DNA of 64,000 bases from an uncultured Gammaproteobacteria bacterium (GTDB lineage Bacteria > Patescibacteriota > Microgenomatia > Woykebacterales > RBG-16-39-9b). Within the stretch, counting starts at the first letter, position 1, and each line of letters starts with the position of its first letter. Made by a program: the position numbers and the translations under genes. Under the pieces are notes generated by a model, which saw only the letters and a program-made list of their open reading frames with translations, was not told where the DNA came from and made no database searches. The stretch is taken from assembly GCA_965231125.1 (NCBI GenBank), contig OZ246414.1, positions 81,739 to 145,738 on the forward strand. The letters run 5' to 3'. Shown piece after piece: positions 2,487 to 50,753 of this stretch.

Positions 2487-3368
2487 GTGGATGAAAAAAC
2501 GAATTCACCAAGCGGCTCTAAACGAAACTTAGTCTTGATTGGTTTAGGGGTGGCAATTCTTGCTCTTGCTTCGACTACTTGGGTTGCTTCGCAATATAAA
2601 ACTACAGCTTTAGAAAAAACTCCTACAACTTCAAAACAAACGAGGGCTACCAAATCTCCAAGCAAGGGGACAACCAAAACTACTGTTCCGAGTAAAGCAA
2701 AAACCAAAACTACAGTTATTGGCCCTGGGGAATCAGCCGAGGTCGACTGCGGCGTTGGTACTGGTGGTACCGAACCTCGATTAGATAGCAGTTCTAACCT
2801 CAAATTTACAACAATCGGTGGGGAGAAGAGAACTCTGAATGTCTACTTAGTGGATAAAGATTATAAACGTGCCGCTGGAGCTCGTCTGAAATGGACATTT
2901 GGGGATTGGGGCTTTGAGGGAAGTCTAGAAATTGATGGGTGTAGCGCGACTTTCACGCCACCCACTTCTATAGGTACAGCTTACAATGCTGGTGCCCATT
3001 TTTATATCAAGGCTGTCTTGCCTACCCCGCCTCCTTCTAAACCAGTTAGTCCAGGTGAGGCAGGACCAATTTTTGCTGGATATACACTTGAACAATCTAT
3101 ACTTGTTTATGACAGCAACAATGGCGGTTCGACTGGCTGTTATGATCCGGCCGGAGTTGCTATTTCTATTAATTCAGTCTCCACGTTCAGCAACGTGCAA
3201 ATAGTAGTAAATACTCCAAGGTACACTGGCCGTAGCTACAGCAGTCGAGTTGCAACAGTCCGTGATGGTCCAGGAACGTACGAGATATACTTCTATGTCA
3301 ACGGTTCTTTGTATGACTCTACCACCTCGCAAGTTGGGGAATGCCAGTTAGCAACGGTAAAACGGTGA
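2487..3368 (+). CDS. N-terminally anchored secreted protein with Thr/Lys-rich linker (unknown function)
   Basis: 293 aa, GTG start, one N-terminal TM (LVLIGLGVAILALAS), low-complexity TTSKQTRATKSPSKGTTKTT linker. Confidence 0.5.
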   Translation: MDEKTNSPSGSKRNLVLIGLGVAILALASTTWVASQYKTTALEKTPTTSKQTRATKSPSKGTTKTTVPSKAKTKTTVIGPGESAEVDCGVGTGGTEPRLDSSSNLKFTTIGGEKRTLNVYLVDKDYKRAAGARLKWTFGDWGFEGSLEIDGCSATFTPPTSIGTAYNAGAHFYIKAVLPTPPPSKPVSPGEAGPIFAGYTLEQSILVYDSNNGGSTGCYDPAGVAISINSVSTFSNVQIVVNTPRYTGRSYSSRVATVRDGPGTYEIYFYVNGSLYDSTTSQVGECQLATVKR

Positions 3369-3986: not shown

Positions 3987-4083
3987 CTAGATCAATTGTT
4001 GGATAAAAATTTCTAACATCGTTCACGACTCGGAGCCACGATTTTTAGCCTCAAATTTTAATACCTGGGAAGTCTGTTGCCGG

Positions 4084-4812: not shown

Positions 4813-4915
4813 TTCCTTAATGCTAGCATATTTTTAGGAAAAAGTATAAAAATTTCTAACTTCCTTTACCAAACGGGGCCAATCATAGGCATTACAGACT
4901 TGATATAATTTCAGT

Positions 4916-10215: not shown

Positions 10216-10256
10216 AGCCCACCTTGTGTTTTCACCAGGTGGGCTTTACTTTTTTA
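10216..10256 (+). terminator. terminator hairpin closing the GC-rich insert (overlaps the Nudix stop)
   Basis: agcccacct / aggtgggct 9-bp stem followed by ttactttttt. Confidence 0.55.
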
Positions 10257-10716
10257 ATAACTCTCTTGCTTTTCGGAAAATTTCTTTATCACTTTTGAAG
10301 GAGAGGGTTCCTTCAACCTCATCGCTTGGTATCCACTGCGCGTCTTCCATTTCCCAATCGTGATCCGCTGGATCACCGGACAAATATTCCATCAGAAAAT
10401 ACGTAACTTTTTTCTTAACTAGCTGGCCTTCGAGTTTGTAGAAATATTCTATTGGTGAGAATTCTTGGACTATCTTTGCTTCCACTCCGCCTTCTTCTTT
10501 TACTTCGCGGACGGCAGTTGTTTGTCTGTCTTCGCCCGGATCAATAAGACCTTTGGGAAAAACCCAACCGTGGTGTTGGGAATGCTTTGTAAGGAGAATA
10601 TGAATTTGACTGTCCTCTTTTTTTAGTCCGGCTGGACGCAAGCTCCGCTTTAGTCGAGGACGTAAGCTCCGCTTATAGACAATGCCGCCAGCGCTTTTTT
10701 CAAATTTAAGAGCCAT
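10246..10716 (-). CDS. Nudix hydrolase
   Basis: Nudix box GLIDPGEDRQTTAVREVKEEGGVEA. Carries an N-terminal repeat-encoded insert KRSLRPRLKRSLRPAGLKK. Confidence 0.85.
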   Translation of the reverse strand: MALKFEKSAGGIVYKRSLRPRLKRSLRPAGLKKEDSQIHILLTKHSQHHGWVFPKGLIDPGEDRQTTAVREVKEEGGVEAKIVQEFSPIEYFYKLEGQLVKKKVTYFLMEYLSGDPADHDWEMEDAQWIPSDEVEGTLSFKSDKEIFRKARELLKK

Positions 10717-10783
10717 GTTTTTGCCTTTCAGCTTACTCTCTGGTAAAATTATACGCGTTTTTGAGGTAAAAAAGTAAATTCTT

Positions 10784-10859
10784 GCCCCCGTAGCTCAGTG
10801 GATAGAGCGCAACGTTGCGGACGTTGAGGCCGGAGGTTCGAATCCTCTCGGGGGCACCA
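10784..10859 (+). tRNA. tRNA-Arg (anticodon GCG)
   Basis: gcccccg ta gctc agtggata gagc g caacg tt-GCG-ga cgttg ... ggttcgaatcc ... cgggggc a cca. Confidence 0.85.
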
Positions 10860-10958: not shown

Positions 10959-11029
10959 GTCCCAGTAGCTCAGTGGAAAGATCGCTACGCGCTCTGCGAC
11001 CACTTCGTAGTCTAAAAGCGCAAAAACAT
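10959..11029 (+). pseudogene. tRNA-like 5' fragment fused to the dispersed repeat (not a functional tRNA)
   Basis: gtcccagtagctcagtggaaagatcgc mimics the acceptor and D-arm of the adjacent tRNA-Arg(CCG) (gtccctgtggctcaatggatagagcac). It continues as acgcgctctgcgacc... with no T-arm. Confidence 0.45.
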
Positions 11030-26364: not shown

Positions 26365-26431
26365 GGCAGGTGTATTTAAATTCTATCCTTTGATAGCTTT
26401 AAAAACAATCCTTATCAAGAAGGTGTCCTTA

Positions 26432-26537
26432 GCTAGCCATTAAGATGGCTAGCACAGGATTCGGGAGTACCCGAATCACTTGGATTTGGTTACGGAGAAT
26501 CCTTAGTCCAAAGGACGCGGGACACTTTAAGTGTCCC
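26432..26537. repeat. hairpin cluster containing the left copy of the 33-bp inverted repeat
   Basis: Four consecutive hairpins: 26432-26453 (9-bp perfect stem), 26456-26503 (aggattc/gaatcct outer stem), 26506-26516, 26519-26537 (gggacac/gtgtccc). The 33-mer 26465-26497 is the reverse complement of 33337-33369 (32/33). Confidence 0.6.
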
Positions 26538-26549
26538 ATAGCCAATGTA

Positions 26550-26558
26550 TGCTATAAT
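26550..26558 (+). promoter_or_regulatory. extended -10 promoter TGcTATAAT for the GC-rich lipoprotein gene
   Basis: TG 26550-26551, TATAAT 26553-26558, about 52 nt upstream of ATG 26611. Confidence 0.45.
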
Positions 26559-26610
26559 ATGGTGCAAAACTAGCTCTCAAACAAAACCATACTTCAGAAG
26601 GAGGAGAGAC

Positions 26611-33233: not shown

Positions 33234-33336
33234 GCTTGTTACCTCAATTTTTCGGCGTACTACAGGTTTAATCCTGTAGTTCTTTTGATCTTTATTCGTT
33301 TTTTAAGGTGCACATTAGCTTTTCGAAAATAGATCG

Positions 33337-33399
33337 CTCCGTAACCAAATCCAAGTGATTTGGGTACTCTCGCGTTCTGTGCTTTAAAAAAGCTAAGGG
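33337..33399. repeat. right copy of the inverted repeat (33-mer plus extended imperfect arm)
   Basis: ctccgtaaccaaatccaagtgatttgggtactc (33337-33369) is the reverse complement of 26465-26497 with 1 mismatch. The arm continues ...gttctgtgct..agctaaggg, matching 26427-26457. Confidence 0.65.
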
Positions 33400-33817
33400 C
33401 TCTGGGTGACAAATTTCTTATCAACCAGAGCCCACCTTCGGGGTCCTATGAAGGGACACCTCAACTCGGAGGTGGCTCTGGATTATTTAGTTTAATTTTA
33501 AGTTCGCCCTTACTCATTTTTTCTAGCCTCTACTGACTGGCCGAATTTTAGCATAACTTAGCTTAAATGTCAACTATAAGTCATTTTGTAACTTCGAAAC
33601 CTGCGAGCTCTTGGTTTCTCAGGTACTCTCACGTCTCGCGCTAGGCGTCTTAACGCCTAGCTAAGAGCGCATCGGTTTTTATTCGCGCAGTACGATACAG
33701 TTTGACTCGGTTGCTTTTAGCCTCCCCATGAGCCATAATAATCCCTACAATAGTCGTAAAAAGCTATTTTTCGGCGAAGGATCAGCGAAGCGAGCCGAAG
33801 TATTGTAACCAAAAGTT

Positions 33818-47492: not shown

Positions 47493-47543
47493 AGGATTCA
47501 CAGTAGCTGGCTCGCCAAGCGAGGTATAAGCTACGAGAATCCT
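47493..47543. repeat. hairpin with the same outer stem (aggattc...gagaatcct) as 26456-26503 but a different interior
   Basis: Outer stem 47493-47499 / 47537-47543. Inner stems gtagc/gctac and ctcgc/gcgag. Lies 5 nt upstream of the -35. Confidence 0.5.
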
Positions 47544-47547
47544 ATAG

Positions 47548-47576
47548 TTGACAAATCCTTTAAGTTGTGTTAAAAT
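47548..47576 (+). promoter_or_regulatory. TTGACA-N17-TAAAAT promoter of the 47.6-48.5 kb GC-rich unit
   Basis: TTGACA 47548-47553, TAAAAT 47571-47576. Confidence 0.5.
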
Positions 47577-47582
47577 ACACCC

Positions 47583-47825
47583 ATTAACAATTGAAAATAG
47601 ATCGCTAACGCGCTCTGCGTCGCTAGCGCTCCTAATGGTTACAAGGTAAAAACTTTTAAAGGCACTTTGTAACTGGAGTTGAAGTTATAGCTAACTGTCA
47701 TTACGGAAACGTCCTGAAGTCTAGAACAATTCGAGTCCAGTTACCAGGTGCCTTTGTGTATCTAGGCGGTACGTCTTGCTGACCCGGCAAGCTATCGTTA
47801 AACAAATTATGGGTATGGAGGAACG
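47583..47825 (+). promoter_or_regulatory. long (~245 nt) structured 5' leader containing a copy of the dispersed repeat
   Basis: Repeat copy 47594-47638. Long-range stem aaaggcac..taactgga (47658-47677) / tccagtta..gtgccttt (47735-47754). SD atGGAGGa 47816-47822. Confidence 0.4.
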
Positions 47826-48503: not shown

Positions 48504-48546
48504 AAAGACCACAAAGCGAGTAATCGCAGCGTGGTCTTTTTATTTT
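48504..48546 (+). terminator. terminator of the GC-rich unit, overlapping the valS stop codon
   Basis: aaagaccac / gtggtcttt stem followed by ttatttt. Confidence 0.6.
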
Positions 48547-50753
48547 GGCCACGCGGAAACCATGATGGAATCATCCTTTTTTAGTCCGTTAGGACGCAGA
48601 GCGCGAAGCGATCTATTTGGTAACTTCTGCCAAAGATCTTCGGTTATGTACGGCATGAAGGGGTGGAGTAGTCGCAAAGATTCTTCAAGGACTTTTTCCA
48701 AAACCGGCTGAGCTTCGTCTCGTCGGGATTTTGAACTTTCAATATATTTATCGGCAAAGCGGTGCCAGACGAAATCGTAAAGCTCTCCGACCGCCTGACC
48801 AAAACGATAATTCTCGATTGCTTTGGTTACAATTTCTCTTGTTTTCTCCAATTCCTCCAAAATCCATTTGTCATCCAGGTGAGTGGGTGTAGGGTGTAGG
48901 GTATAGGGTTTAGGGTTTTTTGATTCGGGTTCATTCGAGTTATTATTCGCGTCCATTAGAATATACCGGCCGATGTTCCAGAGTTTATTAGTGAAATTGC
49001 GCATTCCTTTTATTTTATGTTCGCCAAGGTTAGCATCATTGCCTGGACCAGTTCCGAAGACGAGGGCCATCCGGACTGCGTCCGCACCGTATTTTTCCGC
49101 AACATCCAGCGGATCAATGACATTATTTTTACTCTTGCTCATTTTTTGACCCTTTTCGTCGCGAACCAGGCCATGTAAGTAAACCGTTTCAAAAGGGACT
49201 TTACCGGTCACATAAAGACCAAGCATGATCATGCGCGCGACCCAGAAGAAAAGGATATCGTAGCCAGTTTCCATTACAGAGGTTGGGTAAAATTTCTTAA
49301 AATCGGCTTCATCTTTTTGTCCGTAACCCAAAGTGGTAAACGGCCATTGCCCCGAGGAAAACCAAGTATCGAGGGTGTCCGGATCCTGTTCAAACTTGGT
49401 TGAGTCGCAATTTGCGCACCTAGTCGGGGGTTCAACTGAGACAAACTCCCCATTTTTCATTTTGCATTCTTCATTCTTCATTTCCTGACAGTAATAAACT
49501 GGCAGGCGGTGGCTCCACCACAGTTGCCGGGATATACACCAATCGTGAATATTCTCCATCCAATTAAAATAAATTTTTTCGAAACGGGGTGGAATGATTT
49601 TGATTTTGTTACTCTTAACCGCTGCCAGGGCGTCTTTAGCCAAATTCTTGCCGCTCTTACCGGTTTTGTTGACAGCAACAAACCATTGTTTGGAAACTAG
49701 AGGCTCGACGACAGTATCAGAGCGTTCGCAGACACCGACACTAGTCTTGTGATGCTGCGTTTTTTCCAACAGGTCCAGTTTTTCCAGATCGGTAACGATT
49801 TGTTTGCGGGCGGCGTATTTATCCAAACCAGAGTACTTACCTGCCTCTTTGGTCATTTTGTCGTCAAAACCGATGACTTGAATTTGGGCTAGTGAGTGAC
49901 GCTGTCCGACTTCATAATCGTTCGGATCGTGTGCTGGTGTTATCTTCACCGCTCCACTACCGAACTTTGGGTCAACGTAGGAATCTTTAATAATAGGAAT
50001 CTCCCGGTTCATCAACGGTAGGATGGCTGCCTTTCCAACTAAAGTCTTGTAACGTTTATCGCCCGGGTTAACCGCGACCGCTGTGTCGCCCAGCATTGTT
50101 TCCGGTCGGCTCGTGGCTACAGTTACAGTTTCTTTAGAATTCTTAACTGGATAACGGATAAACCAAAGGTTCGATTCTTTTTCTTTGTGAAGCACTTCGA
50201 GATCGGAAAGTACAGTCGCGCAGCGCGGACACCAATTAACCATTCGGCTGCCGCGGTAAATTAACCCGTCGTCATAAAGGTCTTTGAAGGTTTGGTAAAC
50301 TACTTTGGAGATTTCTGGATCAAGAGTAAATTTTTCGCGAGACCAATCTAAGCTAAATCCCATTGCCCGTAGTTGGTCGTACATTTGCTTTTTATTTTCT
50401 TGGGTGAATGCGTAAGTTTGCTTGAAGAATTCTTCCCGGCCAAGGTGGTGGCGAGTCTTACCTTGCCTTTCCAAAACCTCCCGTTCGTAAACGACTTGGG
50501 TTTGGATGCCGGCGTGATCTGCTCCTGGCAGCCACAAAGTCGAATCCCCAAGCATCCGGTGGTAGCGGATTAAAATATCCTCGATGACGTACATGGCGTG
50601 GCCGATGTGGAGCCGACCGTTGGCGTTTGGCGGAGGTAAAATAATTGAATAAGGTTTGCCTTTAGGATTGGTCTCTGGCTTGAAAAACTCCCCCTTTTCC
50701 CAAAGGGAATACCATTTGCTTTCAACTTGTTTATGCTCGTAAACTTTTTCCAT
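48540..50753 (-). CDS. valS: valine--tRNA ligase (short form without C-terminal coiled coil)
   Basis: 737 aa. PPPNANGRLHIGHA (HIGH), KMSKSKNN (KMSKS). Carries the repeat-encoded insert NRSLRALRPNGLKK near the C-terminus. Confidence 0.95.
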   Translation of the reverse strand: MEKVYEHKQVESKWYSLWEKGEFFKPETNPKGKPYSIILPPPNANGRLHIGHAMYVIEDILIRYHRMLGDSTLWLPGADHAGIQTQVVYEREVLERQGKTRHHLGREEFFKQTYAFTQENKKQMYDQLRAMGFSLDWSREKFTLDPEISKVVYQTFKDLYDDGLIYRGSRMVNWCPRCATVLSDLEVLHKEKESNLWFIRYPVKNSKETVTVATSRPETMLGDTAVAVNPGDKRYKTLVGKAAILPLMNREIPIIKDSYVDPKFGSGAVKITPAHDPNDYEVGQRHSLAQIQVIGFDDKMTKEAGKYSGLDKYAARKQIVTDLEKLDLLEKTQHHKTSVGVCERSDTVVEPLVSKQWFVAVNKTGKSGKNLAKDALAAVKSNKIKIIPPRFEKIYFNWMENIHDWCISRQLWWSHRLPVYYCQEMKNEECKMKNGEFVSVEPPTRCANCDSTKFEQDPDTLDTWFSSGQWPFTTLGYGQKDEADFKKFYPTSVMETGYDILFFWVARMIMLGLYVTGKVPFETVYLHGLVRDEKGQKMSKSKNNVIDPLDVAEKYGADAVRMALVFGTGPGNDANLGEHKIKGMRNFTNKLWNIGRYILMDANNNSNEPESKNPKPYTLHPTPTHLDDKWILEELEKTREIVTKAIENYRFGQAVGELYDFVWHRFADKYIESSKSRRDEAQPVLEKVLEESLRLLHPFMPYITEDLWQKLPNRSLRALRPNGLKKDDSIMVSAWPK

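Follow-up and report, generated by a model that had tools for sequence, protein, structure and literature searches.

A tandem hairpin repeat in frame in a Nudix hydrolase gene, a probable short subtype of a repeat family of Woykebacteria-like bacteria

A 64,000-nucleotide (nt) stretch of contig OZ246414.1, deposited as an uncultured Gammaproteobacteria bacterium and referred to here as the window, carries a Nudix hydrolase gene in which two tandem units of a short hairpin-forming sequence are read in frame. From sequence comparison, we propose that this insert belongs to a family of repeats of Woykebacteria-like bacteria of the candidate phyla radiation (CPR), as a subtype with a short first hairpin (short-hairpin-1) that was duplicated in tandem, and we put the probability of this reading at roughly three in four. 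An earlier note on this DNA had described two tandem in-frame copies in the Nudix gene, on the minus strand at 10618-10674, and both the sequence and the open reading frame (ORF) are as it described them. Its boundaries have to be redrawn: the comparison with orthologues bears out a tandem insertion, but the insert spans 10624-10674, and the KK codons at 10618-10623 belong to the host gene and lie outside it. The features of this locus are as follows.

10246..10716, minus strand: host gene, a Nudix hydrolase; ORF of 156 amino acids (aa) with an intact Nudix box (GLIDPGEDRQTTAVREVKEEGGV) and a match to PF00293.
10624-10674, minus strand: Nudix insert, 51 nt (17 aa), after TAT and before AAAAAAGAG; it equals unit A plus unit B.
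10651-10674, minus strand: unit A, 24 nt, AAGC-GGA-GCTT / ACG / TCC-TC-GA / CTA; encodes KRSLRPRL.
10624-10650, minus strand: unit B, 27 nt, AAGC-GGA-GCTT / GCG / TCC-AGCC-GGA / CTA; encodes KRSLRPAGL.

The host ORF has both the GX5EX7REUXEEXGU box and the Nudix fold, and its match to Pfam family PF00293 has an E value of 3.7e-20. The peptide KRSLRPRLKRSLRPAGLKK is located between strand b1 (GGIVY) and strand b2 (IHILLTKH) of the protein. In an AlphaFold model built on the homologue alignment (mean pLDDT 91.9), the insert region (residues ~21-40) forms a low-confidence loop between strands 4-16 and 38-45, in agreement with the earlier placement between the GGIVYK and IHILLTKH strands. At the DNA level, the 17-mer AAGCGGAGCTTRCGTCC is present exactly twice in the window, the copies being 24 nt apart. 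Unit A (AAGCGGAGCTTACGTCCTCGACTA) directly follows the host TAT (10675-10677), and unit B (AAGCGGAGCTTGCGTCCAGCCGGACTA) runs into the host AAAAAAGAG (KKE). One substitution and a 3-nt deletion separate the two units: the second hairpin of unit A is degraded by this deletion and its linker reads ACG in place of GCG. The minimum free energy fold of unit B consists of two hairpins. Tandem Repeats Finder, run at a score of 30, did not report the pair.

Comparison with other Nudix proteins identified the stretch as a discrete insertion. Most of the 1683 homologues found are 135-139 aa long, and of the 37 that were aligned, most read GGIVY-KKEN-SQ, versus GGIVY-[KRSLRPRLKRSLRPAGL]-KKED-SQ in the window protein. 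The nearest orthologue (P0002, 68% identity) reads GGIVY-[KPSLRPDGL]-KKED and thus carries a single unit, so that most orthologues have no unit, P0002 has one and the window protein has two. A more distant orthologue (P0080, at locus L193, 51% identical) carries the same short module at the identical site with a different 3' part: GTT TAT / AAGC-AGA-GCTT-GCG-GTCCTCGCCTACGGCTGTGGGTC-TT / AAAAAAGAT. This module is identical to that of the window at 13 of 14 positions, whereas identity over the remainder of the two genes is 59%. In a further orthologue (P0078; L194, 10001-10522), CATCCTGAGCGAAGTCGAAGGATA (AHPERSRRI) occupies the same loop.

The canonical form of the family is found in valS, the gene for valyl-tRNA synthetase (ValRS):

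48582..48614, minus strand: canonical 33-nt unit, in frame in the valS ORF (48540..50753, minus strand); AGATCGC-TTC-GCGCTCT / GCG / TCC-TAAC-GGA / CTA.

This unit encodes RSLRALRPNGL (11 aa), is flanked by AAT and AAAAAG, and scored E 4.3e-11 with R1, a covariance model built from canonical units. The insert is absent from 58 aligned ValRS orthologues, which read LWQKLPN-KK-GE-SIMVSPWPK; the window protein alone reads LPN-[RSLRALRPNGL]-KKDDSIM. Together with the R1 score and the multiple copies of the family, this upholds the earlier claim that valS carries the element. That the Nudix gene and valS carry the same element also stands in so far as the architecture is shared, GCGTCC-N4-GGACTAA being common to unit B and valS without a mismatch, but the earlier note had seen the 3' half only, and the Nudix units would be of the short-hairpin-1 subtype. 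The ValRS orthologue of another genome (P0172, 64% identity) has its own insert, RSLRALHSKEL, elsewhere in the protein, at residue 427. Its DNA (AGATCGCTTCGCGCTCTGCACTCTAAAGAGCTA) and the window valS insert (AGATCGCTTCGCGCTCTGCGTCCTAACGGACTA) are identical at 27 of 33 nt, with the first 19 nt the same, the differences in the stem compensated, and AAT preceding both.

Throughout the family, units are 27-37 nt long and follow one architecture: WAT / hairpin 1 / GCG / a variable, covarying hairpin 2 / CTA / A-rich sequence. Canonical hairpin 1 (AGATCGC-TTC-GCGCTCT) is invariant, and the canonical core comprises 19 nt (AGATCGCTTCGCGCTCTGC). The stems of hairpin 2, on the other hand, vary from copy to copy with complementarity kept (GTCC/GGAC, GTTC/GAAC, GACT/AGTC, GTCG/CGAC, GGAGC/GCTCC). 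Over the three pairs of this stem in 27 curated units, both sides had changed in 17 cells, versus 3.7 in shuffles, where 0 of 500 reached 17; slid controls gave 0-3.

The flanks define the site of insertion. Among 42 copies, the 5' flank had T at -1 in 39, A at -2 in 35, and A or T at -3 in 39; after CTA, A was found at +1 in 20 of 26 copies and a purine at +3 in 22 of 26. The insertion site is about WAT / AAR, without target duplication, and the exact in-frame gains of 33 nt and 51 nt show no duplicated flank. We also considered a TA target-site duplication of the IS630/mariner type, which would add 32 nt rather than 33; this model was rejected because a 32-nt gain would shift the reading frame of valS and of P0172. 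The sole case seen with a flanking duplication is a TopA gene (L046, 1592-3781), in which, at ~3010-3080 on the minus strand, a perfect 12-nt direct repeat (CAAATGCCAAAT; peptide QMPN...QMPN) lies on either side of a unit plus 9 nt. The repeat may be a local duplication that accompanied the insertion.

Copies inside genes (long ORFs) are read in three frames and in both orientations. The forward frame, RSLRALR..L, is used in ValRS (twice), topoisomerase I, UvrB and a ComEA-like protein; the reverse frame ..AEREAIY. in Mfd and in two PHP_C-like proteins; and another reverse frame, ..RRARSDL., in a UDP-GlcNAc 2-epimerase (WecB). Of the forward frames, two are closed by stops that arise at T|AG and CTA|A. 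The single open frame reads RSLRAL... in canonical units and KRSLRP... in the short module, and thus the Nudix and valS peptides look alike. Two orthologous genes (L053 and L057) have two units and one unit, respectively. Overall, its behaviour is that of a DNA element rather than that of a peptide or of an RNA tied to one strand.

Since the Nudix units lack the canonical core, we assign them to the short-hairpin-1 subtype by architecture, flanks and recurrence. TAT precedes unit A, and the CTA of unit A precedes unit B, which displays the complete arrangement with its A-rich flank: CTA / AAGC-GGA-GCTT / GCG / TCC-AGCC-GGA / CTA / AAAAAAG. A scan of the window for the generalized architecture returned three sites (valS, unit B and 26504-26537), against 0.015 expected from 200 dinucleotide shuffles. 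The same scan of 299 kb of related loci recovered canonical units and, in addition, an intergenic 27-nt unit of a Patescibacteria genome (L063), AAT / AAGC-GAA-GCTT / GCG / AAC-TTCA-GTT / CTA. The short module has the form AAGCNRAGCTTGCG, followed by a hairpin and CTA; searched as AAGCNRAGCTTRCG, it gave four copies in CPR DNA and two chance matches in one high-GC locus, with 0.2 in shuffles. Short matches of the GCGTCC-N4-GGACTAA type numbered 3, versus 1.1 expected, and 8 of 100 shuffles reached 3. As such matches are near chance alone, the case rests on the comparison with orthologues and on the architecture of the full unit.

Several results weigh against this assignment or against mobility of the element. 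Unit B aligned with R1 over its 3' half only, at a non-significant E value of 0.84, and the missing 19-nt core leaves both Nudix units outside the family as the core and R1 delimit it. The generalized architecture was defined after the window copies had been seen, which makes the window scan partly circular, and independent support for the Nudix units comes from two extra loci only, L063 and P0080 (L193). Predicted DNA folds show two hairpins, but most units are no stabler than shuffles (z about +0.5 to -1.5); as fold energies fail to separate the two, it is covariation rather than energy that supports the structural claim. The earlier note had proposed checking whether copy number varies between strains or bins; the three samples carrying exactly this genome showed no variation at the insert, either in copy number or between filled and empty sites. 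Finally, a tblastn search of 1.25 Mb around ~200 copies, with IS608 TnpA and Escherichia coli RAYT probes, returned no match below E = 3.

Our model suggests that a repeated element of 27-36 nt, specific to Woykebacteria-like CPR bacteria, was inserted at the DNA level into the Nudix gene. One short-module unit would have entered at TAT / AAAAAAGAG, in the b1-b2 loop, and this single-copy state would still be present in P0002. In the window lineage the unit would then have been duplicated by slippage or unequal exchange, which we favour for the pair because a single substitution and a 3-nt deletion are all that separate its units; unit A would have lost its 3 nt later. A genic copy would persist only with a length divisible by three, a stop-free frame and a location in a tolerant surface loop. 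What the sequences directly support are discrete gains at WAT/AAR, presence or absence at orthologous sites, tandem amplification, independence of orientation and frame, and survival in loops. By analogy with REP/RAYT or IS200/IS605 systems, the family might be spread by a trans-acting enzyme that recognizes single-stranded hairpins and inserts them 3' of a short motif, a proposal that we regard as rather doubtful.

Other explanations of the insert were weighed against this model. The Nudix b1-b2 loop could have grown by its own slippage, its resemblance to valS and the family being a coincidence. Many orthologues do show variation in the length of this loop, their sequences there being unrelated, the tandem pair as such must have arisen by local duplication, and the missing core, the weak R1 score (E 0.84) and the near-chance short matches point the same way. 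However, local expansion would leave as coincidence that the whole unit fits the family architecture, including WAT, GCG, CTA and the A-rich flank (0.015 expected per window), that the short module is also intergenic in another genome (L063), and that it recurs at the same site in the 51%-identical orthologue with 13/14 identity, against 59% for the gene. We consider such a local origin unlikely.

Selection could instead act on the function of the sequence, either as nucleic acid or as peptide. If the repeat were a functional RNA or regulatory motif (a terminator, a processing or stabilizing hairpin, or a protein-binding site) under selection at each site, with the coding copies incidental, one could point to the identity of the 19-nt core across genera, the covariation of hairpin 2, the modest adjacency to tRNA genes (5 of 38 loci, and the window) and the copy lying just downstream of a strong promoter-like site. 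Nevertheless, intergenic copies have no orientation bias relative to the neighbouring genes (5' side, 22 same and 17 opposite; 3' side, 17 and 17), no T-run follows the hairpins in either orientation, presence and absence differ at orthologous sites, and no Rfam family matched any copy, even permissively; we find this explanation quite improbable. Least probable of all, and in our view very improbable, is that a basic motif (RSLRP.GLKK / RSLRALRP.GL), serving for example in nucleic-acid binding or targeting, was selected independently in the proteins. Over the 5' part, the Nudix and valS inserts resemble each other more in peptide than in DNA, with the R and S codons being CGG AGC and AGA TCG, and SLRP.GL is retained between P0001 and P0002 at 68% overall identity. 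Yet the shared RSLR arises because both modules are GC-rich palindromes with GCTT-GCG in the only stop-free frame; moreover, the same DNA is mostly intergenic, the opposite orientation and other frames yield the unrelated peptides AEREAIY and RRARSDL, and a disordered loop is predicted for the insert.

Model R1, the architecture scan and alignment together located eight units at six loci within the window. Cores of 19 nt with at most one mismatch occurred twice, versus 0.02 expected, and R1 added a third. Besides the Nudix and valS units, these are as follows.

10979..11014, plus strand: canonical 36-nt unit, intergenic, between tRNA-Ser(cga) and tRNA-Arg(ccg); R1 E 1.2e-9.
~26448..26503, minus strand: second expanded unit, AGGATTC-[same internal segment as at 33331..33386]-GAATCCT / GTGCTAG; 3' boundary approximate.
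26504..26537, minus strand: variant unit, intergenic, TAT / GGGACAC-TTAAA-GTGTCCC / GCG / TCC-TTT-GGA / CTA; from the architecture scan.
33331..33386, plus strand: expanded unit, AAT / AGATCGC-[33-nt internal segment]-GCGTTCT / GTGCTTTA / AAAAAG.
47599..47634, plus strand: canonical unit with a hairpin-1 loop 1 nt longer, intergenic; R1 E 5.6e-5.

The variant unit at 26504-26537 (DNA fold z = -5.05) corresponds to the intergenic copy that the earlier note had placed near 26499-26518, and the full architecture emerges there once the 5' hairpin is included. An alignment of 26400-26600 with 33260-33460 had led us to regard this copy as chance, a view that was overturned by the same hairpin. It stands in tandem with the expanded unit at ~26448-26503. 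The other expanded unit (33331-33386) scored E 0.45 with R1, the alignment containing a 33-nt insertion in the hairpin-1 loop. Between the two expanded units, a 47-nt segment is 89% identical (26451-26497, minus strand; 33337-33383, plus strand), lies inside the hairpin-1 loop both times, holds its own hairpin (GATTCGGG-TACT-CCCGAATC) and is confined to the window among all DNA compared. The outer stems around it differ by compensated changes (AGGATTC/GAATCCT versus AGATCGC/GCGTTCT). This segment may represent a longer form from which the element derives. A long hairpin, AGGATTC...GAATCCT, at 47494-47545 on the plus strand, downstream of a gene resembling that of ribosomal protein L25 (46706..47425), has the same outer stem sequence as the unit at ~26448-26503; it could be either a terminator or one more relative of this family.

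The unit at 10979-11014 is fused to a tRNA-like 5' half (GTCCCAGTAGCTCAGTGGAA; 10959-10978, plus strand), which runs directly into it, lacks a T arm and a 3' acceptor strand, and matches the start of tRNA-Arg(gcg), at 10782-10814, with 85% identity over 33 nt. We considered and discarded a tRNA, split tRNA or intron-containing tRNA at 10959-11028: ARAGORN and permissive Rfam searches were blank, and there is neither a T arm nor a 3' acceptor strand. The half may be the remnant of a tRNA gene disrupted by the element, or the core may derive from tRNA sequence (AGATCGCTACG versus AGAGCGCAACG). Elsewhere, units lie ~25-45 nt from tRNA genes at 5 of 38 related loci (L006, L016, L023, L032 and L067), as does the window unit at 10979; this exceeds the expectation from the tRNA-flanking share of the genome, and both orientations are seen. 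The unit at 47599-47634 lies ~20 nt downstream of TTGACA-N17-TAAAAT, a promoter-like sequence (TATAGTTGACAAATCCTTTAAGTTGTGTTAAAATACACCCA; 47543-47583, plus strand) that recurs as a 73% inverted repeat at a second intergenic site (33538-33578), so that one of its copies is just upstream of a repeat unit.

Some further repeats and segments of the window were noted. A 300-nt direct repeat (81%) at 1056-1355 and 1999-2298, with shorter repeats at 2367-2417, 4831-4881 and 4003-4038 and conserved upstream sequences, suggests that a small family of paralogous genes is arranged in tandem close to the window start. Residues ~600-621 of the window ValRS contain the additional lineage-specific segments MDANNN and PYTLHP relative to orthologues, unrelated to the repeat. 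As in the Nudix orthologue P0078, small inserts that resemble translated hairpins are carried by other ValRS proteins (P0163, P0157, P0132 and P0152, with the inserts LPTGRQG, LPARQEV, PASPAGR and AQGKQK). Such differing inserts in orthologues suggest that several unrelated hairpin repeat families seed protein loops in CPR genomes.

A search for the core AGATCGCTWCGCGCTCTGC in one genome per species gave 64 loci and 72 copies. Many are concentrated in a few genomes: Woykebacteria GWB1_45_5, the LejiaB bins, two bins labelled Nanoarchaeia, a Patescibacteria bin, bin C24_maxbin.080 and a bin labelled Gammaproteobacteria. Copies are found mostly between genes, in short ORFs, and in both orientations; units form direct tandem arrays with a period of 30-34 nt. 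In metagenomes the core was found on at least 120 contigs, mostly of low GC, in at least 141 copies. Core matches in high-GC genomes were single copies without flanks or hairpin; we thus attribute them to chance and excluded them from the family. A scan of viral contigs gave four matches, all in unrelated coding sequence. In the 'Gammaproteobacteria' bin, RpoC shares 68-94% identity with RpoC of Woykebacteria and Patescibacteria, so that the label is wrong and the host range is that of Woykebacteria-like CPR bacteria. We found no description of such repeats for CPR bacteria in the literature, incompletely covered. Thus, the family appears to be undescribed in these bacteria, although in-frame palindromic repeats as a kind are already known from other bacteria.

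In all, public labels look wrong for the bins CAYIWY01 ('Gammaproteobacteria'; L025, L032, L035, L041, L042, L055 and L062), DATBWR01 (L006, L023, L026, L043, L047, L056 and L067) and DASVHF01 (L007, L009 and L064). Bins named 'Candidatus Nanoarchaeia' carry the bacterial CPR repeat, and ValRS proteins labelled Nanoarchaeia are 65-72% identical to the window ValRS. Separately, metagenome-assembled genomes of Desulfocapsa (DYDK01) and Altiarchaeales IMC4 (MCBF01) share a near-identical longer repeat (...GATGAGCGATGCTCTATTGACCTGCCAGCC AGATCGCTTCGCGCTCTGCC TATCAGGCCAATAGAGCGG...; L014, L015, L027, L031, L051, L052 and L054), which contains the same 19-mer and is otherwise unlike the CPR element; it is either a shared mobile element or cross-bin contamination.

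Proteins of CPR bacteria (Patescibacteria) are known for unexplained lineage-specific insertions. A hairpin repeat of ~30 nt that sits in frame, without disrupting them, in the essential genes valS, topA, uvrB and mfd and in a Nudix hydrolase gene, where it subsequently duplicates or diverges, provides a concrete source for some of them, and points to a repeat family that is active or was so recently even in 0.9-Mb genomes with few recognizable mobile elements. Tentatively, and at somewhat less than even odds, the repeats may constitute an ultra-short (~30 nt), WAT/AAR-specific mobile family of CPR bacteria that leaves no target duplication, moved by an enzyme that is not a recognizable HUH transposase, hitting the same sites repeatedly (as in the Nudix b1-b2 loop of lineages 51% identical) and regularly supplying new surface peptides to essential proteins of minimal genomes. 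If true, the units would rank with the smallest bacterial mobile units known. With an invariant 19-nt core, a defined site, and empty and filled orthologous sites, the family offers a system for identifying the mobilizing enzyme. In practice, metagenome annotations acquire spurious ORFs and peptides (RSLRAL..., AEREAIY...) from the units, which are also usable as lineage markers, having exposed bins mislabelled as Gammaproteobacteria and Nanoarchaeia.

Among known systems, the nearest analogues are repetitive extragenic palindromic (REP) elements and the Rickettsia palindromic elements (RPEs), although the CPR family belongs to neither. REP elements and REPINs are 20-40 nt long, consist of one imperfect palindrome with a GTAG-type 5' tetranucleotide, and are mobilized by RAYT (HUH Y1) transposases, whose genes usually have REPs on their flanks. 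The CPR units resemble them in size class, imperfect palindromes, mostly extragenic location, high copy number, clustering, and the lack of terminal inverted repeats and target duplication. In contrast, they have no GTAG-type head (units start with AGAT or AAGC), contain two hairpins, form direct arrays that do not alternate, unlike REP arrays of the bacterial interspersed mosaic element (BIME) type, and occur repeatedly in frame in genes. With minimal elements derived from IS200/IS605, the palindrome-associated transposable elements (PATEs), which give our preferred, though tentative, model of how the units spread, they share insertion directly 3' of a short motif without target duplication and a hairpin near each end, here the WAT flank with hairpin 1 and hairpin 2; PATEs, however, span hundreds of bases with defined ends, and their guide and cleavage geometry cannot be mapped onto a 30-nt unit.

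In-frame gains of residues are also produced by larger elements. QMITE1 and QMITE2 of Coxiella, which are non-autonomous MITEs (transposable elements of the miniature inverted-repeat type), occasionally lie in frame in ORFs and add residues (PMC5896051). MITEs have terminal inverted repeats, usually target-site duplications, and a length of ~100-400 bp, or of ~50-500 bp under a wider definition, whereas the ends of the CPR units (AGATCG... / ...CTA) are not inverted repeats, no flank is duplicated and the units are 27-37 nt long. The RPEs of Rickettsia, of ~150 bp, or ~100-150 bp under a wider definition, encode a conserved peptide and are found in frame in unrelated housekeeping genes without inactivating the protein, and also between genes (Ogata et al. 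2000, summarized in the review PMC10969869). Like RPEs, the CPR units are multi-copy palindromic repeats of a reduced genome that add a peptide at tolerated positions, and they too are inserted in frame into unrelated genes; unlike RPEs, they measure 27-36 nt, are arrayed as direct tandem copies, vary in their second hairpin and use three frames. As length, sequence and host all differ, the CPR repeat and the RPEs are analogous, not homologous.

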